Shown piece after piece: positions 2,660-61,903 of a stretch of DNA of 64,000 nt. Under the pieces are notes generated by a model. That model was given only the letters and a program-made list of their open reading frames with translations. It ran no database searches and had not been told where the DNA came from. Location: sequence record MN850574.1; one strand, written 5' to 3'. The position numbers and the translations under genes are program-made. This DNA comes from Escherichia phage kaaroe. Every line of letters starts with the position of its first letter. The first letter of the stretch is position 1.

Positions 2660-4050
2660 TGAGCAGAGTATTAACTTTCGATATGTTAACAGACGGGCAA
2701 AAACATGCTTTTGATGTTCTAATGAAACGCATTGAACAAAAGAAGCATACAACTGTCCGTGGTGCGGCGGGTACTGGTAAAACCGCAATGATGAAATTCA
2801 TTGTTCAGGAAATGGTCCGCCGTGGTGTAACTGGTGTGGTTTTGGCAACGCCTACCCACCAGGCTAAAAAAGTTTTGAGTAAAGCGGTAGGTCGTCAAGC
2901 ATTTACTTTACATGCACTACTGCGACTAAACCCGACCAACTATGAAGATACTCAAGTATTTGAGCAAAAAGATACTCCTAAGCTAGATGATGTTCAGATC
3001 ATCATTGTTGATGAAGCGAGTATGGTCGATAAGAAACTATTTGATATTCTCATGAAGAGTATCAACGGTCGAATTGTTATTATTGCCGTGGGTGATCTGT
3101 ACCAGTTACGACCAGTTGATCCGAGCGGTGCAACGTCGATCTCTCCTTTCTTCACCGATGAAAGGTTTCAGAATGTAGAACTTACAGAGATTAAACGATC
3201 TAATGCGCCAATAATTGATGTGGCGACCGCTGTCCGTAATGGTAAATGGGTATTCGAAAAGCAGTGCGGTAACGAGGGTGTATTCCATAGCTCAACTCTG
3301 CCGGAGTTTATGAAGCATTATTTCGAAACCGTTAAAACGCCGGAAGACCTTCTAGAAAACCGTATTCTGGCCTACACTAACAAGAGCGTCGAAAAACTCA
3401 ATGAAATTGTGCGTAAGCGCGTTTATAACACCGATGAACCAGTGATTGTAGATGAAATTCTGGTTACTCAGGAACCATTGATCGAATATCTGCGAGATGA
3501 ACGCGGGAAGAAGATTCCCAATGTTATTTTTAACAATGGTGAGATGATCCGAGTTAAAGAGGTCATCCCGCGTGAATTTACATTACGTTGCACGGGGGTA
3601 GATCCGCAACCAGTTTTAGGATATACTCTGAAAGTGGAAAGCGTCGATGATGACGAAGACAAAGAAATCCTAAATCAGAAAGTCGGTTTAGATGCAGTCG
3701 GAATCACTACAGATAAACCAGATTTAGTAGAAATCAACATTCTGACAGAACAACGTCAGAAGAACATTTTCTCTATCTATCTGAATACGGTCGCCGGACA
3801 ATATCGCGAAATGAAGAAAGAGAATCCAAAATTTAAACCAGATTGGGATTCCTTCTGGACGATGAAGCGTATGTTCTTGAATGTAAAAGCATTACCAGCT
3901 TGCACCATTCATAAGTCACAAGGGATCAGCGTAGACCGCGTGTTCCTGTATACTCCTTGCATGTGTACAGACAATGTTGACTTTGAACTGGCAATGCAGT
4001 TATTATATGTGGGTGTTACCCGTGCGCGGTATCGAGTAGACTATATTTGA
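2659..4050 (+). CDS. dda: Dda DNA helicase (SF1)
   Basis: Walker A GAAGTGKT, APTHQAKKVL, TEIKRSNAPIIDVATAVRNGKW, LLYVGVTRARY match T4 Dda. Confidence 0.93.
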   Translation: MSRVLTFDMLTDGQKHAFDVLMKRIEQKKHTTVRGAAGTGKTAMMKFIVQEMVRRGVTGVVLATPTHQAKKVLSKAVGRQAFTLHALLRLNPTNYEDTQVFEQKDTPKLDDVQIIIVDEASMVDKKLFDILMKSINGRIVIIAVGDLYQLRPVDPSGATSISPFFTDERFQNVELTEIKRSNAPIIDVATAVRNGKWVFEKQCGNEGVFHSSTLPEFMKHYFETVKTPEDLLENRILAYTNKSVEKLNEIVRKRVYNTDEPVIVDEILVTQEPLIEYLRDERGKKIPNVIFNNGEMIRVKEVIPREFTLRCTGVDPQPVLGYTLKVESVDDDEDKEILNQKVGLDAVGITTDKPDLVEINILTEQRQKNIFSIYLNTVAGQYREMKKENPKFKPDWDSFWTMKRMFLNVKALPACTIHKSQGISVDRVFLYTPCMCTDNVDFELAMQLLYVGVTRARYRVDYI

Positions 4051-53708: not shown

Positions 53709-54029
53709 ATGAAATTAACTAAAAAGATTTTCCCAGAATTGCGTAACTGTCTGTTACTGGTTACTGAATATAAACCTTATACGATCTATTTGTACGTTGA
53801 TGAAAATCTGAAAATCCGTTACTATGATTATACGTCTCCAGTGATGAAATCATTTGCTCACTCGATCGCAAATAACTGTATGAATCACAATCATTGGGTA
53901 TCAGAAACGGATGACGATGCGTCAGAAGTTGTAGTGGTTGCATGGAATCTATCACCAGCGGAAGCAGATCAAGCACGCATTAAGCATTATGCGAAAAACA
54001 ATTGGTTTGACCTTATAAATGAGGACTAA
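53709..54029 (+). CDS. hypothetical protein, HxHW...AVDV paralog family
   Basis: MNHNHWVSETDDDASEVVVVAWNL motif variant. Confidence 0.5.
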   Translation: MKLTKKIFPELRNCLLLVTEYKPYTIYLYVDENLKIRYYDYTSPVMKSFAHSIANNCMNHNHWVSETDDDASEVVVVAWNLSPAEADQARIKHYAKNNWFDLINED

Positions 54030-54033
54030 TATT

Positions 54034-54312
54034 ATGTTCAAAGTAGGTGATAAGTTTATTCTTAGTCGTGATATTCTCCCTAATCTGAAAGGTTGTATCA
54101 TCAATCCTAGTAAAAATTCATGGTTTTATCTGTTTATCGATGATGATCTAAATGTACGCGCCGAATATAAAGAAGGTCTTCGTACTGGTCTTGGTTTCTT
54201 TCACGATCATGACCATAGCCATTGGCTAAACGGTGGATTCGAAGCAACGGTGATAGCGGTTGATGTGGATTACACAAACATCATAGAAAAATATCAAAAA
54301 ATTATTTTATAA
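54034..54312 (+). CDS. hypothetical protein, HxHW...AVDV paralog family
   Basis: HDHDHSHWLNGGFEATVIAVDV motif. Confidence 0.55.
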   Translation: MFKVGDKFILSRDILPNLKGCIINPSKNSWFYLFIDDDLNVRAEYKEGLRTGLGFFHDHDHSHWLNGGFEATVIAVDVDYTNIIEKYQKIIL

Positions 54313-54318
54313 AAAGTG

Positions 54319-54347
54319 TTGACATAAGATCGGGTGTATAGCATAAT
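54319..54347 (+). promoter_or_regulatory. early promoter cassette with dyad over -10
   Basis: TTGACA-17-CATAAT; perfect inverted repeat GGGTGTAT/ATACACCC brackets -10; ATG 54394. Confidence 0.6.
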
Positions 54348-54393
54348 ACACCCATCGAAACGAGATACACTTTCTAACTAGGAGAATCAAATT

Positions 54394-54681
54394 ATGGCAT
54401 ACATTACTATCACTCTGAAAGTTAACAAATTTGCTCACGCTGCACACGAAACCGATAATGCAATCCGTAACAACAAGTTCGCACGTCTGGTACGCGATGC
54501 AGTAGCTAAAGAGTTCAACTTCAAATTTGCAGATGGTAAAGTTATCACTAAATGGACTCATGACGGCGAAACTAAAGTAGAACTTGCTGACAACTTCGCA
54601 AATCAGGAATATGCACACCGTCGCATTAATGAAATCATCAGCGATGAACTCTACTACGGTGTACAGGAAGGACTGTTTTAA
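54394..54681 (+). CDS. hypothetical protein
   Basis: Conserved leader/RBS, followed by terminator. Confidence 0.55.
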   Translation: MAYITITLKVNKFAHAAHETDNAIRNNKFARLVRDAVAKEFNFKFADGKVITKWTHDGETKVELADNFANQEYAHRRINEIISDELYYGVQEGLF

Positions 54682-54684
54682 TAT

Positions 54685-54708
54685 ACGGGGCGTTAAGCCC
54701 CCTTTTCA
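54685..54708 (+). terminator. rho-independent terminator
   Basis: GGGGCGTTAAGCCCC hairpin followed by CTTTTCATC; same hairpin recurs at 58887. Confidence 0.65.
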
Positions 54709-54730
54709 TCCAACTATTGAGGATAATACT

Positions 54731-55039
54731 ATGAAAGATAATATCTTTGAATTTACCCGCGAAAATCTCCCAATGTTCCGAAAGTCTCTGCTTAAACTAG
54801 AGAACAGCAATTACGATGTATATTTTTACATCACCGAAGATCTAGAGATCCTTTACGCTGATTACCCAGGTCCGATCCGTACCTTCGAAGAAGCATCGCA
54901 GTATAAAAATGTTCACGGTCATGAGCACTGGTTACGAGAAAACCCAGGTCGCAAGAAAGCACGCGTTAAAGTGATTGCGATTGACGTAACACCAGCATAC
55001 GCCGACCGGATTGCACTGAATGATTATTTGTCTAAATGA
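54731..55039 (+). CDS. hypothetical protein, HxHW...AVDV paralog family
   Basis: HGHEHWLRENPGRKKARVKVIAIDV motif. Confidence 0.55.
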   Translation: MKDNIFEFTRENLPMFRKSLLKLENSNYDVYFYITEDLEILYADYPGPIRTFEEASQYKNVHGHEHWLRENPGRKKARVKVIAIDVTPAYADRIALNDYLSK

Positions 55040-55047
55040 TTTTATTA

Positions 55048-55075
55048 GCCGACCTTAGCGTCGGCTTTTTTATTG
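55048..55075 (+). terminator. rho-independent terminator
   Basis: AGCCGACC-TTAG-CGTCGGCT followed by TTTTTTATT. Confidence 0.75.
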
Positions 55076-55095
55076 CATAAAATTAAAAAAAAGAA

Positions 55096-55124
55096 TTGAC
55101 ACCAGATCACGCCTATAGCATAAT
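55096..55124 (+). promoter_or_regulatory. early promoter cassette
   Basis: TTGACA-17-CATAAT, leader ACACCCATCGAAACGAG.., ATG 55165. Confidence 0.6.
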
Positions 55125-55164
55125 ACACCCATCGAAACGAGATACCACTTAGGAGAATCAAACA

Positions 55165-55434
55165 ATGGCACTGACTAAAACCACTACCAACTTTGCAAAA
55201 CGTCACGGCTTCGACATTGAAATCAATAGCTTTAACGATTACACTCTTCTGTGTGTATATGAAATCGAAAATGATTGCGAGTGGATGTTCAGCTATCGCG
55301 TAAACGAAGACGGATCTTTCACTTGGAACGGAAATATCTATCTTGCACAGGAAGTAAAAGAAGAACTTCCGGCGAATATCAAAGATGAGAAACATTTACG
55401 TCAAGTTTTAAAATTTATTTCTGAAAATATCTAA
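55165..55434 (+). CDS. hypothetical protein
   Basis: AGGAGAATCAAACA-ATG cassette. Confidence 0.55.
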   Translation: MALTKTTTNFAKRHGFDIEINSFNDYTLLCVYEIENDCEWMFSYRVNEDGSFTWNGNIYLAQEVKEELPANIKDEKHLRQVLKFISENI

Positions 55435-55442
55435 AAAAGTTG

Positions 55443-55471
55443 TTGACACCAAAGTAAGAACATAGCATAAT
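55443..55471 (+). promoter_or_regulatory. early promoter cassette
   Basis: TTGACA-17-CATAAT, ATG 55505. Confidence 0.6.
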
Positions 55472-55504
55472 ACACCCATACCGAAACGAACTGGAGAATC
55501 AAAA

Positions 55505-55786
55505 ATGAAATTCATCAAAGCAACCGAAATCCTGAAAAACAAAGAAGCATACATCGGAAACATCGTTGGTATGAACATTCGCGGCGCTGGTAGCCAGTGG
55601 ACCAAACTGGTTGATGTTAAAGCTAAAGGCGATAAAATTGAGTTCACTGTAAAAATGCTTACTCATAACGCACATATGGGTATCAAGACAAAAACGATGG
55701 CAGCAGATAAAAGCATTAACTATCAGGGTCTGGGTGATTGGCTGAACTGGTGCAAAATGCACAATATCGAAACTAATCACGAATAA
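55505..55786 (+). CDS. hypothetical protein
   Basis: Conserved leader/RBS. Confidence 0.55.
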   Translation: MKFIKATEILKNKEAYIGNIVGMNIRGAGSQWTKLVDVKAKGDKIEFTVKMLTHNAHMGIKTKTMAADKSINYQGLGDWLNWCKMHNIETNHE

Positions 55787-55800
55787 TTTTAAAAAAGTTG

Positions 55801-55829
55801 TTGACGGGGATCGGGAGATCCCCTATAAT
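55801..55829 (+). promoter_or_regulatory. early promoter cassette with palindromic spacer
   Basis: TTGACG-GGGATCGGGAGATCCCC-TATAAT, ATG 55863. Confidence 0.65.
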
Positions 55830-55862
55830 ACACACATAACGAAACGAAATAGGAGAATCAAA

Positions 55863-56030
55863 ATGTTCGAGACTAAAGCAGCATGTGAAGCATATATCAT
55901 TGAAACCCACGGCGAAGATTATCTGAAATTTGACATTGTAGTAGCACAGAAGATTGTAGGGATGGTTGCAAAATATCTGGGTGTTAAAGAAGGTTACTAT
56001 CCGAGCAACGCACCAGAAATTAACAAATAA
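55863..56030 (+). CDS. hypothetical small protein (55 aa), near-identical paralog of 52583-52750
   Basis: See 52583 entry; about 90 percent identical at protein level by eye. Confidence 0.55.
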   Translation: MFETKAACEAYIIETHGEDYLKFDIVVAQKIVGMVAKYLGVKEGYYPSNAPEINK

Positions 56031-56044
56031 TTTTATAAAAAGTA

Positions 56045-56073
56045 TTGACAGGGGAGGATAACTCCCCTACAAT
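56045..56073 (+). promoter_or_regulatory. early promoter cassette with palindromic spacer (operon 56114-58346)
   Basis: TTGACA-GGGGAGGATAACTCCCC-TACAAT, ATG 56114; no further promoter until 58355. Confidence 0.65.
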
Positions 56074-56113
56074 ACAACCATCAAGACGAGATACCACTTA
56101 GGAGAATCAAACA

Positions 56114-56365
56114 ATGGCTAACATCGAAACCGCAAAGAAAATCGCTAAAGACCTGAACGTTAAAGGCTTCCGTAAACTGAAATTACAGCGTGTACGCTAC
56201 ACCATCGGCAAACAGTGCTCTTTCATGAGCGAAGAAGTTGCTAACAGCCTCATTGATAACCTGATTGCGGCTGGCTGGGAAGTTGCGGATCTGAAAACTT
56301 GCCGCGAACTGGCTAACAAAGGTCTTTTAGATTCTGTTACTATCAAACCAATGGGGGCAGCGTGA
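56114..56365 (+). CDS. hypothetical protein (operon gene 1)
   Basis: Conserved leader/RBS. Confidence 0.55.
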   Translation: MANIETAKKIAKDLNVKGFRKLKLQRVRYTIGKQCSFMSEEVANSLIDNLIAAGWEVADLKTCRELANKGLLDSVTIKPMGAA

Positions 56366-56607
56366 AAAGAAAATTAATTAAACGCAATAAGGAATTTCTT
56401 AATAACTGCATTAAGGCCGCTAATGGTTGGCCTTTGTGCCTCTTCCTTTATGATTGGTATTCTAAACAATCAGTTGAGGAAACACGACACTATAAGAAGA
56501 TCAGAAAAGAATCATATACAAAACAAGGCCGCATTAACGGACTTTACTTAATGTGGCACGGCAAAGAACCTTCTAAAATCTGCGTTGGATTAAAGGGGCG
56601 TATATGA
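56362..56607 (+). CDS. hypothetical protein (operon gene 2, GTG start)
   Basis: GTGA overlap with upstream stop; ORF track 56362-56607. Confidence 0.45.
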   Translation: MKRKLIKRNKEFLNNCIKAANGWPLCLFLYDWYSKQSVEETRHYKKIRKESYTKQGRINGLYLMWHGKEPSKICVGLKGRI

Positions 56608-57320
56608 AACAAAAATTAATATTCTGTAACTTTGACGGATCGGGGATAATGGGGCTAGAATGGGCTAAAGCAGGTCATAAGGTGATCTGCTTTAATGCTG
56701 ACGATGGCGACCACGGCACATACAAAAAGTATAATACCAGATTTGAACACCCAAACATTACCTATGTAAACACATGGATTGATTTGAACTGGCTAGAAAG
56801 AGCAATGGACCTTGAATGGGGGAAACCGGATATTATCTTTGCATTCCCACCGTGCACCAATTTAGCTGTTAGTGGCGCTGCACACTTTGAACGAAAGAAA
56901 CGAGAACAAGGACCATTGATTCAAGTTCATGATGTAAGGGCAGCTAAAATAACCGCTTATTTGGGTGAATGGCTAGGAGTTCCCTACATGATAGAGAATC
57001 CTGTAAGCGTTATCTCTAGCATGTGGCGTAAGCCTGATTACATGTTCCACCCGTGGGAATATGGCGGTTATTTGCCGGAAGATGATAAACATCCTACTTT
57101 TCCTGAGTATATCGCCGCCCGTGATATGTACCCGAAAAAGACTTGCTTATGGACCGGACAAGGCTTTATAATGCCAGAAAAGAAACCGTTGCAGATTAAT
57201 AAAGGGTACAGTAAACAGCATTCTAAGCTAGGCGGGAAAGGAACGAAAACAAAGACTATCAGGTCACTTACCCCGCGAGGATTCGCAAAGGCAGTATTTG
57301 AAGCAAATAAGGATCTATGA
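56604..57320 (+). CDS. C5-cytosine-methyltransferase-like catalytic core protein (operon gene 3)
   Basis: Motif-I-like FDGSGIMG, motif-IV-like FPPCTNLAVSG, motif-VI-like IENPVS; 238 aa, no obvious target-recognition domain. Confidence 0.45.
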   Translation: MKQKLIFCNFDGSGIMGLEWAKAGHKVICFNADDGDHGTYKKYNTRFEHPNITYVNTWIDLNWLERAMDLEWGKPDIIFAFPPCTNLAVSGAAHFERKKREQGPLIQVHDVRAAKITAYLGEWLGVPYMIENPVSVISSMWRKPDYMFHPWEYGGYLPEDDKHPTFPEYIAARDMYPKKTCLWTGQGFIMPEKKPLQINKGYSKQHSKLGGKGTKTKTIRSLTPRGFAKAVFEANKDL

Positions 57321-57655
57321 TGAGATTGTTTAAGTATTCGCTAACGTCAAATTACGATAAACAAGGTCATTGCATCCGTTGCCCTGATTGTCATAGCCAT
57401 AACATCGAAAGCAAGATCACCGATCATATTGATGGACTTTGGTCGCCAGCAAGTGAAATAGAATACTATTGCGCTGATTGTGGAATTGTAGTAGCATATT
57501 GGGCATACGGATCATATGATCCATACTTCCAGATGGGAGAACGTTCAATCCCTGCGCTTATCTGGAGAATTAAGAACAATATCCGCTATTCATGGGATGA
57601 GTTCTTAAAAGATATTGATTTACGTGATGATCCATTCAGGAGAACTATATTATGA
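57317..57655 (+). CDS. zinc-ribbon protein (operon gene 4)
   Basis: CIRCPDCHSH ... CADCG; ATGA overlap with upstream stop. Confidence 0.5.
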   Translation: MMRLFKYSLTSNYDKQGHCIRCPDCHSHNIESKITDHIDGLWSPASEIEYYCADCGIVVAYWAYGSYDPYFQMGERSIPALIWRIKNNIRYSWDEFLKDIDLRDDPFRRTIL

Positions 57656-57831
57656 TAACACCACAACTACACGGTAAAGAGATTTGCGATCTTACTTGGG
57701 AAGAGTTGGTCATGTATCGCGACACCTACAAATGGTTTGAATCCATGAAAGAATTTGTAGCAGCAGTACGAGAAGAAATGAGCATTCGCCAGTATGCGGA
57801 CGCATATATTGAAAAGGTAAGCACACTATGA
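57652..57831 (+). CDS. hypothetical small protein (59 aa, operon gene 5)
   Basis: ATGA overlaps at both ends; manually translated. Confidence 0.4.
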   Translation: MITPQLHGKEICDLTWEELVMYRDTYKWFESMKEFVAAVREEMSIRQYADAYIEKVSTL

Positions 57832-58346
57832 ACCGTTTAACGCCTAAACGCCGTTACTATACCAATACTAAAAACTTTGTCATCTCTGTTTATGAGGCGT
57901 GGTTAGAAGATGGCTTTATCAACATGAACCCAGATTATCAGCGTCCTTTGGTATGGGACACCGAAAACAAACGTATGTTTATCGAAAACCTGATTAATGA
58001 TTTTCCGGTTGGTGCTATCGCAATGGCTAAGATTGATGATGGCTCTCGCTATGAGATCGAAATCGTGGACGGTAAACAGCGTTTAAACGCAATATTCTCC
58101 TTCATGAAGGATGAGTTTAGCATTGCTGGTAATGATGATTCTATGTTGTATTACAGTGATTTTACGCCAGCAGAAAAGCGACGTTTCCGAAATCTCGGAC
58201 TACCCGCGATCATGATGGAAGAGAGCACACGAGAAGACCGATTAGAGTATTTCTACAAAACAAACTTTTTCGGTGTGCCTCAATCGGAAGAACATCGCCA
58301 GCATGTGATTGCCCTATTGCAAGATGAGCAATTAAAAAATAACTAA
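57828..58346 (+). CDS. DUF262/ParB-like nuclease-domain protein (operon gene 6)
   Basis: NPDYQRPLVW and IVDGKQRLNAIF (DGQQR-type) motifs typical of DUF262, the GmrSD N-terminal domain. Confidence 0.6.
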   Translation: MNRLTPKRRYYTNTKNFVISVYEAWLEDGFINMNPDYQRPLVWDTENKRMFIENLINDFPVGAIAMAKIDDGSRYEIEIVDGKQRLNAIFSFMKDEFSIAGNDDSMLYYSDFTPAEKRRFRNLGLPAIMMEESTREDRLEYFYKTNFFGVPQSEEHRQHVIALLQDEQLKNN

Positions 58347-58354
58347 AAAAGTTG

Positions 58355-58383
58355 TTGACAGGGGATCATCGATCCCCTATAAT
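58355..58383 (+). promoter_or_regulatory. early promoter cassette with palindromic spacer
   Basis: TTGACA-GGGGATCATCGATCCCC-TATAAT, ATG 58418. Confidence 0.65.
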
Positions 58384-58417
58384 ACACACATACCGAAACG
58401 AACTAGGAGAATCAAAC

Positions 58418-58597
58418 ATGAAACACTTAACCATCGAATCGGCAATCATCGCAATCGCTAAAGTTCAAGCGGCTTATAATTGCACTGACATTGAAGCCAT
58501 TTCAAAAATGCAAGCAGAAGCAGCAAAAGCGGGTGACGAGAAATCTTTAGATGTTCTCTGCGAAATCAAAGCAGAATTGATTTCAAAAATGTTCTAA
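58418..58597 (+). CDS. hypothetical small protein (59 aa)
   Basis: Conserved leader/RBS. Confidence 0.5.
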   Translation: MKHLTIESAIIAIAKVQAAYNCTDIEAISKMQAEAAKAGDEKSLDVLCEIKAELISKMF

Positions 58598-58603
58598 AAG
58601 TTG

Positions 58604-58632
58604 TTGACATAACAGAGGGTGTATATCACAAT
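58604..58632 (+). promoter_or_regulatory. early promoter cassette with dyad over -10
   Basis: TTGACA-17-CACAAT; inverted repeat GGGTGTAT/ATACACCC; ATG 58669. Confidence 0.6.
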
Positions 58633-58668
58633 ACACCCATACCGAAACGAACTACTAAGGAGTATCAA

Positions 58669-58948: not shown

Positions 58949-61000
58949 ATGTTTAACTTAGAAATCGACGATCTAATGATTGAATCTTTCGAGAAATGGC
59001 TGTTGACGGAAGAGGAAGAAAACTTTGGCAGTATTGCTCCGGTACAGTGCTTAAAGCCTAAGCAGAATCCTAAACAGCTTTTTGCAGTACAGACACGCGA
59101 TAAAGATGTGATTGTCCGTCTTTGTAACTTCACCAACAAAACACCTAAAATCATTCGTATGGGTGACAAGACCGCACATGTTGTACTGTGCGAAATGAAC
59201 AAAAGCGGTCGTATTGTACAGCTTAAAAATGGTCTAGGCGATAACCCGATTGCAGTTATGTCAAGTGCTTTTGATGTGGTTATGGAAACAGCCCGTAAAG
59301 CGCAATTAGACGCTGTTATGTTCCGTTTTAACGTATCCCGCATGAAAGGTAAGACCGAACTGGTTAAGCGCGTTATAGAGCGTTTGGTGCGTCGTACACC
59401 GAAGTTTGAAGTATTCCAGCAGGAAGTAATGACCAGCAAAAAGATCGCTTTAGTTGTTGTCAAGCGTCGCGGGATGGCGATTGATAAGATTAAAGGTATT
59501 AAACTTGATGAATCCTTGTTCACTAAAGTAGAAAGTGATTTAGGTGATCGCTGGGTATCTAAGGCTACTGGTGAATCTCTGACTAAAGATGAGGCATATG
59601 CGGCTAGTCTTGTGTCAGAAGAAGAACGAAACGCGGAAGCAGAACAACGCGTAGCGGCTAAATCTCGTTTGACTAAAGAAGAAATGCTGAAAACTCAAGC
59701 GACATATAACAGCGACTACGTGAATCATCCAGAAAAAATTAATCTTAAACCGGAAGAAGATATCACCGAAGCAGAACCTAAGAAACAGTTTAATACTCTG
59801 ATTGACCGTCAAGCCTTAGAACGTTCAACCGCCCGTTCTCTGAATGACTGGACAAGTGATATTATCACTCGCTATGGTTTCATGCGTACTATTTTTGAAA
59901 GCGAAGCCGATGCAAAATACGCAGTAAGCGAACTGGTAAAAGTTCAGGATCAATATGATCCATTGTCTGCGGAAGTTATCGCAGCCTCGGTCAAACGCTT
60001 AAAAGAAATCATGAGCGAGGAAGTATTCGAAAACAAGATCACCGCCCTGGCAATGGATCGAGTAGACCAGTCTATGCCAGCAGATGTAAAAGCTGAAATG
60101 CTGCGTAGTCATATCACCCAGATTAAAACAGATGCCCTACGTAATATTGCCTCCGGTATGTTTGAAGCAATTGCTAGCAACATGGGTGAAATGATGGCAG
60201 ATATTGATCTTGATCTGCCGGGCGCGGAAGGTTTTGTGTTGAGCGAATATGCCGATGCAGCATACATCAATATGAACAACTTCCTAACCGACCGTAAGCT
60301 GGAAGAGTTTGAAGGCATCGCAGATCCAGAAGAATTGGTCAAGATGTGCGATGCACTGGATAATGCCTTCTCCAACTATGGCGTTAAACTTGATCCGGGT
60401 ACTATTCTGTATCGTGGTATGGACTTCCGGTCGCAAATGTGGGAAACTGCACGTAAGCAAAAAGCGTTTTACTTTAAAAACTATGTGAGCACTTCCCTTG
60501 CACCTAACATTTTTGGCGGCTGGAATGCAAACGTGGCTAGTGCCGTTGCTGGTGTTGATTCTATGGCTGGCTCTCGCGGTGAAGGTGGCGCTAATGTTGC
60601 TTTCTCCATTGCTGGCGCGGAAAACATCCCTGTATTGCCAGTAGGTAACAAAGCATTTGCTTACAAAGAATGCGAGATTTTACTTCCTCGCGGTGTTGTG
60701 TTATCCTTTGATACGGTAACTCGTGCTACGGCATCGACGGATTCACAAGAAACTTATTACATCGAGGCACATATTATGAACAAAAATGAACTGGCAGCAT
60801 TACAAGAATCTGGCGAGATGATCGCGGACGGTGATGCATTCATCCGTGAAGGTGTTGTTAAACCGGCTTCTGACCTGTCTTTCTCCAGCTTCATTAGCGA
60901 AGCTAAAACCGAACGTAAGAAAGCAGATAAGGCAACTCTACGTCAGCTTATCGCTGATCTGGTATCTGTAGACGCAATGCCAGATAAATTTAAAATGTAA
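58949..61000 (+). CDS. alt: ADP-ribosyltransferase Alt (virion-packaged)
   Basis: 683 aa (T4 Alt 682); SLFTKVESDLGD, LYRGMDFRS, FYFKNYVSTSLAPNIFGG, ECEILLPRG (R-S-ExE) match T4 Alt. Confidence 0.9.
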   Translation: MFNLEIDDLMIESFEKWLLTEEEENFGSIAPVQCLKPKQNPKQLFAVQTRDKDVIVRLCNFTNKTPKIIRMGDKTAHVVLCEMNKSGRIVQLKNGLGDNPIAVMSSAFDVVMETARKAQLDAVMFRFNVSRMKGKTELVKRVIERLVRRTPKFEVFQQEVMTSKKIALVVVKRRGMAIDKIKGIKLDESLFTKVESDLGDRWVSKATGESLTKDEAYAASLVSEEERNAEAEQRVAAKSRLTKEEMLKTQATYNSDYVNHPEKINLKPEEDITEAEPKKQFNTLIDRQALERSTARSLNDWTSDIITRYGFMRTIFESEADAKYAVSELVKVQDQYDPLSAEVIAASVKRLKEIMSEEVFENKITALAMDRVDQSMPADVKAEMLRSHITQIKTDALRNIASGMFEAIASNMGEMMADIDLDLPGAEGFVLSEYADAAYINMNNFLTDRKLEEFEGIADPEELVKMCDALDNAFSNYGVKLDPGTILYRGMDFRSQMWETARKQKAFYFKNYVSTSLAPNIFGGWNANVASAVAGVDSMAGSRGEGGANVAFSIAGAENIPVLPVGNKAFAYKECEILLPRGVVLSFDTVTRATASTDSQETYYIEAHIMNKNELAALQESGEMIADGDAFIREGVVKPASDLSFSSFISEAKTERKKADKATLRQLIADLVSVDAMPDKFKM

Positions 61001-61078: not shown

Positions 61079-61903
61079 ATGTTCAAGAAATTACAGGATT
61101 TTCGTCTTTCAGAAGAATCACGCGAATCAATGATGGAACGTATGGATAATTACATCGAAACATATGACATTGAGGGGATTAATGGTTACATGATCACTGA
61201 GATGATCAGCGATCAGATTAACTTTGATGATTATGTGAAGGTTATCCGCTTCCTTGAGCGCGAGACACAAGATTATGGATTTGTAAAGAAAATCATTAAT
61301 GTGATGTATGAAGTACACTCCGAAGACTTTGGAGATAATGTATTCAAACATTACAAACATAACAACATAACCCCAGCAGAATATAATGCAATCTGTGATT
61401 ATGTGTCTGAACAATACGAATGGGTAAATGGTGCTCTCTTAGGGGAAGAAGACATGACCGATGAGATATCAGAGATTGTTGATTTGATGGATTGTGTCAT
61501 GGATAAAACCGAAAAGTTAAACGGTACTCTTTATCGAGGTCAACATCTTGACATTCAGACAATAGAGCGTATCATTGAAGATAAGGAGTTTACCTTTAAA
61601 AACTTTGTATCTACCAGCATGACACCGATCATCTTTGGAGGATGGCTATCAAACAGCACTAGCCTTTATTGTGAGAATCGATATGAATCAATGACCGGAA
61701 AGATGCAACATTCTTGTAATGTATCATGGGTAATTGACGTAAAAGATCATAAAGGTTTTGTTGTTGGGTCAATTGCATGGAACCCTTGCGAATGTGAAGT
61801 AATTTTACCGCGAGGGACTTGCGTCAAGGTAAACGACGTAGTAGAATCTTTCGGCGATGAGAATCGTAGACAATTTACAATTTTCGGTGAGGTGACTAAA
61901 TGA
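61079..61903 (+). CDS. second ADP-ribosyltransferase (Alt/Mod-like paralog)
   Basis: LYRGQHLD, FKNFVSTSMTPIIFGG, ECEVILPRG triad aligned to the Alt C-terminal domain. Confidence 0.75.
   Translation: MFKKLQDFRLSEESRESMMERMDNYIETYDIEGINGYMITEMISDQINFDDYVKVIRFLERETQDYGFVKKIINVMYEVHSEDFGDNVFKHYKHNNITPAEYNAICDYVSEQYEWVNGALLGEEDMTDEISEIVDLMDCVMDKTEKLNGTLYRGQHLDIQTIERIIEDKEFTFKNFVSTSMTPIIFGGWLSNSTSLYCENRYESMTGKMQHSCNVSWVIDVKDHKGFVVGSIAWNPCECEVILPRGTCVKVNDVVESFGDENRRQFTIFGEVTK

Follow-up and report, generated by a model that had tools for sequence, protein, structure and literature searches.

The locus described here lies on the + strand of a 64-kb window (the whole stretch of DNA analysed) from an RB49-like (Krischvirus) coliphage. 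It is 99.4% identical to its counterpart in Krischvirus FL04 and 98% identical to that in RB49. It comprises six open reading frames (ORFs) at positions 56114–58346, where the initial annotation had placed them. Gene 1 (56114–56365; 83 aa) is the homolog of RB49p190, gene 2 (56362–56607; 81 aa) of RB49p189.1, gene 3 (56604–57320; 238 aa) of RB49p189, gene 4 (57317–57655; 112 aa) of RB49p188 and gene 6 (57828–58346; 172 aa) of RB49p187. These counterparts are found in the same order in RB49 (NC_005066), between the ligase gene and alt. Gene 5 (57652–57831; 59 aa) is absent from RB49, in which it corresponds to a clean indel (a gene-sized gap in the alignment), whereas the window and FL04 carry it between the zinc-ribbon and DUF262 genes.

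Organization of the operon and its flanking cassettes

In T4-like genomes, small genes commonly overlap in long runs, and phage Cronuts has an eight-gene overlapping run adjoining its DUF262 homolog. In the operon studied here, five successive start and stop codons overlap by four nucleotides (GTGA at 56362; ATGA at 56604, 57317, 57652 and 57828), and a purine-rich Shine-Dalgarno-like stretch is present 5' of each overlapping start. In a crude gene model of all 64 kb, the exact four-nucleotide overlap was found at 9 of the 88 same-strand junctions, five of these nine being in this operon, and the six genes formed the longest coupled run of the window, the runner-up comprising four genes; the packing of these genes thus exceeds chance.

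The unit is preceded by a cassette (56030–56113, + strand) consisting of an AT-rich stretch, a promoter and a leader. The promoter (56045–56073; TTGACA-17-TACAAT) is of the sigma-70 type, with 11 of 12 matches in the promoter scan, its –35 box (TTGACA) lying at 56045–56050 and its –10 box (TACAAT) at 56068–56073. A stem-loop, GGGGAG-gataa-CTCCCC, occupies the promoter spacer (56051–56067; listed by the scan on the – strand), and the Shine-Dalgarno sequence of gene 1 (AGGAG) is located at 56100–56104. A second cassette (58347–58417, + strand) closes the unit and opens the next gene; it contains a –35 box (TTGACA, 58355–58360), a stem-loop (GGGGATCATCGATCCCC, 58361–58377) and a –10 box (TATAAT, 58378–58383), with 12 of 12 matches. 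The promoter scan revealed no comparable promoter cassette between those at 56045–56073 and 58355–58383. The proposed six-gene coupled operon behind a single promoter can, therefore, be read directly from the sequence, in the ORFs, the five overlaps and the promoter at 56045–56073.

The same cassette pattern recurs at 55096, 55443, 55801 and 58604. Such promoter-early stem-loop (PeSL) elements have been described for RB49 and phi1, and transcription termination by their stem-loops has been demonstrated (PMC2839356). The flanking cassettes display all the features of these elements: a strong sigma-70-like promoter, a G/C stem-loop within or close to the spacer, an AT-rich upstream stretch, a Shine-Dalgarno sequence with a start codon, and a position between genes of the hyperplastic region. 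The promoter cassette and the neighboring one-promoter-one-gene arrays pointed out in the initial annotation are real, but they had already been published as PeSL elements (PMC2839356). An apparent insertion of ~900 bp in FL37, ELT3 and ELT4, suggested by a three-piece BLAST match, was found to be a second match to an upstream PeSL repeat, the operon in these phages having the RB49 form.

The encoded proteins

Gene 3 is, on the basis of its sequence, a member of an already characterized family of phage cytosine methyltransferases (phage Dcm-family C5-cytosine DNA methyltransferases). It matches PHROG 757 over residues 1–237 (2.1e-90), a full-length family match, and has 7310 homologs of about 225–260 aa. 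Motif I (FDGSG, residues 10–14; F10, G12, S13 and G14), motif IV (P82-P83-C84) and motif VI (E131-N132-P133) are invariant in 35 diverse homologs, as are, past motif VI, the WR and KK that include Arg142 and Lys178-Lys179. The motifs from motif I through a C-terminal IX/X-like segment are all present on one protein, the predicted fold of which is a DNMT3-like C5-methyltransferase catalytic-domain fold. The match to Pfam PF00145 is below the cut-off (14.4 bits, against the required 22; E 0.027) and is limited to residues 10–100, no NCBIfam model was matched, and phmmer gave no meaningful match among PDB sequences. About 75 residues separate WRKP (~141) from IRSLTPRG (~219); their sequence is strongly conserved throughout the family rather than variable, and this speaks for a specificity that is intrinsic and fixed.

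The Dcm of phage K42 (711 bp; residues C82, E128, K175 and K176), when expressed alone from a plasmid, has been reported to increase the 5mC content of msDNA, as measured by LC-MS, and to trigger the retron Ec86 (bioRxiv 10.1101/2023.08.16.553469). Its placement in the gene 3 family is suggested by gene length and these four residue positions; 711-bp ORFs from phage contigs of about 51 kb have Cys82, Glu128 and Lys175-176, and are 55–56% identical to gene 3 over their full length. The CCWGG specificity of K42 Dcm was assumed from the host Dcm and is backed by msDNA mutagenesis only (bioRxiv 10.1101/2023.08.16.553469). Gene 3 had been considered far too short to include a target-recognition domain (TRD). 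Only ~75 residues are indeed available at this position, but this shortness does not imply a missing partner, because K42 Dcm, of the same length, is reported to be active alone. BL21(DE3), a derivative of E. coli B, carries a native Ec86 retron (bioRxiv 10.1101/2023.08.16.553469), and the growth of Krischvirus phages on E. coli B would be hard to account for if Ec86 were triggered by their Dcm.

No modified nucleosides were detected by HPLC-MS in the DNA of Krischvirus TB34, though this phage has gene 3; m5C at rare sites could lie under the detection limit of this method. Cytosines are modified in SAP but not in TB34, both of which are Krischvirus phages (PMC13390438). The operon was considered as a possible cause of this difference and rejected: it does not differ by a single base between these phages and cannot, therefore, explain their different modification, the only local difference being a 79-bp PeSL duplication downstream of the operon. 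Depletion of CCWGG sites (25 observed versus 64 expected) was also dropped as an indication of self-methylation or of its absence, given its lack of specificity: counts of GGWCC and GGCC are low too.

Gene 6 encodes a stand-alone DUF262 protein (GmrSD_N, ParB/sulfiredoxin fold; Pfam DUF262, 5e-20) carrying the NPDYQR and DGKQR signatures, in agreement with the GmrS-type DGQQR motif. The motifs named in the initial annotation for gene 6, like those for gene 3 (FDGSG, PPC and ENP), are thus present, and those of the mini-DUF262 family are strictly conserved. In GmrSD, NTP is bound by the ParB-like DUF262 domain, and the nuclease domain is DUF1524/HNH. Gene 6 yielded no match to DUF1524/HNH or to a second Pfam domain at E values up to 1, its closest relatives likewise terminate with the DUF262 domain, and the N-terminal extensions of relatives of 250–360 aa match no Pfam family. 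The description of gene 6 as a DUF262 nuclease-like protein therefore holds for the DUF262 domain, but not for the nuclease, and the protein, as encoded, cannot alone be a GmrSD-type restriction enzyme. A phmmer search of PDB sequences gave nothing meaningful. The protein is structurally similar to the N-terminal domains of BrxU and SspE, and its PADLOC matches are DUF262-containing defence proteins, all of 360–600 aa, aligned over their N-terminal part only. Seven relatives were obtained in a word-indexed protein search, and because these were few, relatives were taken from a full HMMER scan. The protein most likely binds nucleotide, together with DNA or a partner protein.

Gene 4 encodes the zinc-ribbon protein that had been proposed at this position: it belongs to PHROG 2993, its four cysteines (Cys22, Cys25, Cys52 and Cys55) are invariant in six homologs, and it matches Pfam Zn_Ribbon_TF at 6e-4, under the cut-off. 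Translation may start at the second ATG (57320), with a one-nucleotide overlap, in place of 57317; the second ATG is the start used in the RB49 annotation and in L090, a related metagenomic contig. A hidden HNH or endonuclease-VII-like nuclease (CxxC...CxxC with a nearby histidine) was considered and rejected: only the four cysteines are invariant, His26 and His28 not being conserved in the six homologs. The protein is a structural Cys4 zinc ribbon that probably binds nucleic acid or protein. A word-indexed protein search yielded a single relative.

The three remaining genes are small. Gene 1 matches PHROG 14908 (5e-59) and, weakly, the C-terminal part of RT_UG35 in PADLOC (E 2.6e-5); its tblastn matches are confined to Krischvirus, plus a copy in L090 with 72% identity. 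Gene 2 (PHROG 7065) has a basic N-terminus and a GTG start, which is backed by an ATG at the same codon in the L090 homolog; 121 of the phage records containing this gene are distant (<60% identity), from JS98-like and PG7-like phages and Salmonella/Escherichia phages of ~105–115 kb. Gene 5 was found by tblastn in FL04 alone among phage records and is 67% identical to the L090 copy; it is missing from RB49 and most Krischvirus.

Gene distribution and interpretation

All Krischvirus genomes examined keep the six genes together (only five of them in most cases), in a tightly coupled arrangement. In agreement with the initial annotation, T4 lacks a module of this kind. The operon is not, however, the new composite modification, anti-restriction or exclusion system for which that annotation considered it a candidate: it is conserved, with its genes already annotated, in RB49 and some 55 further genomes of Krischvirus. 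The genes differ considerably in their distribution (56, 169, 1521, 91, 1 and 301 phage records by tblastn for genes 1 to 6, respectively). None of the 79 gene 3 homolog loci outside Krischvirus has a homolog of gene 1, 2, 4, 5 or 6 within 6 kb in single-sequence tblastn searches, from which very divergent small partners could escape. Homologs of gene 6 from further Straboviridae and from metagenomic phages, and those of gene 4 in four unrelated groups (Nonagvirus 9g, Gorganvirus, an Autographivirales phage and Mooglevirus), have other neighbors, without the rest of the operon. L090 has the same PeSL leader sequence as the window and carries, in unchanged order, genes 1, 2, 4, 5 and 6 (56–72% protein identity), without gene 3, gene 2 directly overlapping gene 4. 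Judging from these comparisons of sequences, the six genes are independently distributed accessory genes and not one composite system; the initial annotation had itself named such a distribution in related phages as evidence against its reading of the genes as one system. Some functional linkage may nevertheless exist among the non-methyltransferase genes. Tight translational coupling in the hyperplastic region of a T4-like phage is, thus, insufficient alone to indicate a functional system.

We consider it probable, with good confidence, that the locus is a PeSL-bounded polycistronic early unit of separate accessory cassettes, in which gene 3 is an autonomous Dcm-family methyltransferase, gene 6 a nuclease-less DUF262 protein and gene 4 a Cys4 ribbon. 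The unit lies in the hyperplastic region between the DNA ligase gene and alt; host sigma-70 RNA polymerase would initiate at 56045–56073, translation of the six ORFs would be coupled, and the unit would be terminated by the next PeSL stem-loop (58361–58377). Gene 3 would act as an autonomous minimal methyltransferase, with Cys84 as the nucleophile and Glu131 protonating N3, and the ~75 residues between motifs VIII and IX would form a minimal target-recognition element conserved across the family. We infer that this enzyme would methylate the otherwise unmodified cytosines of the phage at a fixed short motif (that of its characterized relative, K42 Dcm, being assumed to be CCWGG), such that progeny DNA would resist m5C-sensitive restriction; the price would be recognition of the enzyme by some retron systems.

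Two other readings concern the unit as a whole. For target recognition or loading, the gene 3 core might depend on a subunit supplied by gene 4, gene 6 or both, making the operon a single multi-subunit modification or anti-restriction system. The five successive coupled junctions, the co-conservation of the genes in all Krischvirus records and the ~75 residues found where other enzymes carry a large TRD are consistent with such a machine, and two-subunit m5C methyltransferases (M.AquI, M.EcoHK31I) and ParB-domain/methyltransferase fusions exist. However, 79 of the 79 non-Krischvirus gene 3 loci are devoid of gene 4 and gene 6 homologs within 6 kb, these two genes occur elsewhere without gene 3 as a neighbor, and L090 keeps both in its absence; the reported activity of K42 Dcm on its own and the family-wide conservation of the inter-motif region point in the same direction. 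This first reading appears to be largely refuted by the distribution of the genes, and we regard it as quite improbable. Genes 1, 2, 4, 5 and 6 might, alternatively, form a module of their own around the mini-DUF262 protein (for anti-defence or host takeover, for example), into which the Dcm gene was later inserted as a passenger. The conserved order and coupled junctions of L090 favor this possibility, as do the presence of gene 5 in L090, FL04 and the window, suggesting that this gene is ancestral to the array, and the strict conservation of the family motifs, which implies a selected activity. L090 is, however, probably a moderately diverged relative, given its shared PeSL leader, and its synteny may reflect simple descent; genes 2, 4 and 6 each occur separately in many further phages, and gene 5 is missing from RB49 and most Krischvirus. 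We consider such a module unlikely.

The other two readings bear on gene 6. With its strong DUF262 match, its structural likeness to BrxU and SspE and its PADLOC matches to defence proteins, this protein could be imagined as a GmrSD-type modification-dependent nuclease, with which a phage with unmodified cytosines would attack co-infecting T-even phages, destroying their hydroxymethylated or glucosylated DNA; TB34 DNA is unmodified, and such a weapon would therefore spare its owner. At only 172 aa, however, the protein ends with its DUF262 domain, as its closest relatives do at the same point; there is no DUF1524/HNH match, the adjoining zinc ribbon lacks conserved His/Asn residues for catalysis, and only the N-terminal part of the much longer defence proteins aligns. 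This interpretation is very improbable. There is a slim chance that gene 6 is a new type of phage counter-defence or regulatory factor, possibly with genes 1, 2, 4 and 5, with which it is found in L090; it might, for example, serve as a decoy poisoning host DUF262 immune nucleases, or enable the growth of Dcm phages on retron-Ec86-positive E. coli B. The clean presence or absence of the Dcm gene would then reflect a trade-off between restriction evasion and retron triggering.

The reading of the locus as a unit of separate accessory cassettes makes it possible, in about 55 genomes of Krischvirus, to give names to "hypothetical protein" entries: C5 methyltransferase of the phage Dcm family, zinc ribbon of the Cys4 type and stand-alone protein with a DUF262 domain. 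It also connects a reported trigger of retrons with Krischvirus phages, including some used in phage therapy collections, and predicts that these phages may be sensitive to retron Ec86/Eco1 and protected against m5C-sensitive restriction.

Comparison with known systems

GmrSD, BrxU and SspE are modification-dependent nucleases combining DUF262 and DUF1524; gene 6 shares their N-terminal ParB-like DUF262 domain with (D)GxQR, but is devoid of their C-terminal DUF1524/HNH nuclease half. Gene 3 is about 90–100 residues shorter than M.HhaI, E. coli Dcm and the DNMT3A/B catalytic domain (PF00145), and the large target-recognition region of canonical PF00145 enzymes is cut to about 75 conserved residues. 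In split C5 methyltransferases (M.AquI/M.EcoHK31I type), two adjacent, always co-occurring genes jointly supply the ten motifs, whereas gene 3 has its motif set on one protein and no conserved neighbor outside Krischvirus. A close parallel is K42 Dcm, the reported trigger of retron Ec86/Eco1 from KarlJaspers-like Drexlerviridae, which has 236 aa versus the 238 of gene 3 and the same predicted DNMT3-like fold, its C82, E128, K175 and K176 corresponding to C84, E131, K178 and K179. K42 is a T1-like siphovirus, whereas the phage carrying gene 3 is a T4-like myovirus with the gene inside a coupled early operon, and this operon is bounded by cassettes of the same promoter-stem-loop type as the PeSL elements of RB49 and phi1 (PMC2839356).

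Organization and conservation of the locus

The six ORFs and five 4-nt overlaps described in the initial annotation were all found when the sequence was read directly: genes 1 to 6, all on the + strand, occupy positions 56114-56365, 56362-56607, 56604-57320, 57317-57655, 57652-57831 and 57828-58346, respectively. A crude whole-window gene model identified an exact 4-nt overlap at 9 of 88 same-strand junctions; five of these nine lie in the six-gene locus, which is the longest coupled run of the window. Other T4-like phages, too, commonly have extended series of small genes that overlap. For the GTG start of gene 2, support comes from an ATG at the homologous codon of a related metagenomic contig (L090), and gene 4 may start one codon downstream, as in the RB49 annotation. 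Escherichia phage FL04, which also has the six-gene form, shares 99.4% identity with the 2.3-kb locus, and about 98% identity is seen with RB49 and with some 55 further Krischvirus genomes. In RB49, it is flanked by the genes for DNA ligase (gp30) and the Alt ADP-ribosyltransferase, and its genes are annotated as RB49p190, 189.1, 189 (‘DNA methyltransferase’), 188 and 187. Given these matches and the RB49 annotation, the locus is conserved within a known phage genus and was annotated previously.

The promoter proposed at 56045-56073 was confirmed as TTGACA-17-TACAAT, with a GGGGAG/CTCCCC stem-loop in its spacer, and the next such cassette is located at 58355-58383. [quoted passage not shown] Near-consensus cassettes are found at 54319, 55096, 55443, 55801, 56045, 58355 and 58604 (window 54000-58640), the spacer of every one containing a G/C-rich stem-loop, and a single small ORF follows most of them. 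Two further elements within gene 3, identified by consensus match only, do not have the PeSL architecture: a promoter-like TTGACG-18-TAGAAT (10/12) at the 5' end of the gene (56632-56661) and a weak terminator-like hairpin (57041-57063). Directly downstream of the small-gene arrays are two successive Alt-like ADP-ribosyltransferase genes (58949-61000 and 61079-61903), homologous to RB49p184 and RB49p183.

The Dcm-family methyltransferase and its possible role

Gene 3 (56604-57320) matches PF00145 in its N-terminal part only, with a sub-threshold Pfam score of 14.4 bits, and PHROG 757 (‘DNA methyltransferase’) over its full length (2e-90). It has 7310 homologs of about 230 aa and is found in 1521 phage records from many genera. 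FxGSG, PPC, ENP, WR, KK and LGGK..TK.IRSLTPRG are invariant in an alignment of 35 diverse members, and AlphaFold models the protein with confidence (pLDDT 90.7). According to a 2023 preprint, retron Ec86 is triggered by a 711-bp ‘Dcm’ gene from the Drexlerviridae phage K42, which, when expressed alone, increased 5mC in msDNA, and a C82A/E128A/K175A/K176A mutant of which was inactive (bioRxiv 10.1101/2023.08.16.553469). Phage contigs of about 51 kb carry ORFs of exactly 711 bp encoding Cys82, Glu128 and Lys175-176, with 55-56% identity to gene 3, in which the equivalent residues are C84, E131, K178 and K179. The PHROG match, the invariant motifs and these K42-like ORFs with equivalent residues place gene 3, at the sequence level, in a phage methyltransferase family, one member of which has been studied experimentally and works without a partner. 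The shortness of gene 3, considered in the initial annotation to leave no room for a target-recognition domain, is a family trait and not the mark of a missing subunit.

Most probably, transcription begins early, from the PeSL promoter, and ends at the following PeSL stem-loop. Gene 3 would methylate cytosine at C5 in a fixed short motif, the phage DNA being otherwise unmodified, and this methylation may shield progeny DNA from m5C-sensitive restriction. Genes 4 and 6 would each function on their own, as small accessory proteins that bind nucleic acids or nucleotides. The motif of the K42 relative was assumed to be CCWGG, with support from msDNA mutagenesis only (bioRxiv 10.1101/2023.08.16.553469). 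CCWGG occurs 25 times in the window (1-64000), versus about 64 expected under a third-order Markov model, but this depletion is not specific to Dcm/EcoRII sites, because GGWCC (36) and GGCC (26) are likewise low, whereas the counts for CGWCG and GCWGC are about 85. Host records show that Dcm-carrying Krischvirus phages have been propagated on E. coli B (PMC2839356). According to the K42 paper, a native retron Ec86, triggered by phage Dcm, is present in BL21(DE3), which derives from E. coli B (bioRxiv 10.1101/2023.08.16.553469). Given growth on E. coli B, either the Krischvirus Dcm does not trigger Ec86, or the retron is ineffective against these phages or is countered by them.

Cytosine modification has been described in this genus: the DNA of phage TB34 is unmodified, whereas that of SAP, 99.96% identical to TB34, contains hydroxymethyl and glucosyl-methyl cytosines, for which no pathway is known (2026 study, PMC13390438). 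Both phages have the operon, and it cannot explain this difference, because it is identical base for base in the two. The sole local difference is a 79-bp tandem PeSL duplication in SAP, directly downstream of gene 6 (at about 3616-3694 of the SAP locus, L095, against that of TB34, L094; window equivalent 58347-58417).

Distribution of the six genes

The initial annotation interpreted the coupled genes as a candidate modification, anti-restriction or exclusion system. Its domain calls were largely correct; the ‘system’ reading is unsupported, as the six genes are independently distributed, the outcome that the annotation itself had set against it. Genes 1 to 6 have homologs in 56, 169, 1521, 91, 1 and 301 phage-collection records, respectively, and no homolog of genes 1, 2, 4, 5 or 6 was detectable within 6 kb of the gene 3 homolog in any of 79 non-Krischvirus viral loci. 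Different neighbours surround the gene 4 homologs of Nonagvirus, Gorganvirus, an Autographivirales phage and Mooglevirus, and the same holds for the gene 6 homologs of other Straboviridae and of metagenomic phages. Contig L090 (ENA ERZ27254724 k141_110561, 1-2573) carries genes 1, 2, 4, 5 and 6 at 56-72% identity, with their order unchanged and the same leader sequence in front of them; the methyltransferase gene is absent from this array, the gene 2 homolog overlapping the gene 4 homolog directly, by ATGA. Gene 5 is missing from RB49 and most of its relatives, leaving a gene-sized gap as clean as that of gene 3 in L090. These two absences and the unlinked homologs elsewhere show single genes entering and leaving the array at coupled boundaries, which is what independent cassettes would be expected to do. 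Genes 1, 2, 4, 5 and 6 could, with low probability, constitute a separate module, given their joint persistence in L090, but this contig is probably a diverged relative.

Accessory genes and the stand-alone DUF262 protein

Gene 1 (56114-56365) is restricted to Krischvirus; its residues 12-75 weakly resemble positions 722-785 of the 938-position RT_UG35 (DRT) model in PADLOC (E 2.6e-5, 20.6 bits). Distant homologs of gene 2 (56362-56607) occur in several further groups of phages, and gene 5 (57652-57831) is found elsewhere in one sequenced phage and one metagenomic contig. Gene 4 (57317-57655) is a predicted structural zinc ribbon, with invariant cysteines at positions 22, 25, 52 and 55; an HNH nuclease was ruled out, as no His or Asn is conserved alongside them.

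Gene 6 (57828-58346) matches GmrSD_N (DUF262) at residues 27-122 (5e-20), and no other domain was found in the Pfam search. The closest structural matches to its model (pLDDT 76.7) are the N-terminal domains of BrxU and SspE, ParB-N domains and sulfiredoxin. A full HMMER scan yielded 6097 relatives, the closest of which are either 160-190 aa or 250-290 aa long; the longer ones have the domain at their extreme C-terminus and an additional N-terminal part without a Pfam match. None of this closest set has the DUF1524/HNH nuclease half by which GmrSD enzymes are defined. With its lone domain, these structural similarities and such relatives, gene 6 is a nuclease-less ParB-fold protein, probably nucleotide-binding. 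YQR..VW, DGKQRL and GVPQSEEH are invariant in this mini-DUF262 family, the last as part of a C-terminal N-x2-G-V-P-Q-S-E-E-H motif, the invariance of which suggests a conserved activity.

One component of the locus, the stand-alone DUF262 protein, is still poorly understood; the locus itself belongs to already known kinds, as a phage Dcm family enzyme within a PeSL-bounded hyperplastic-region operon.
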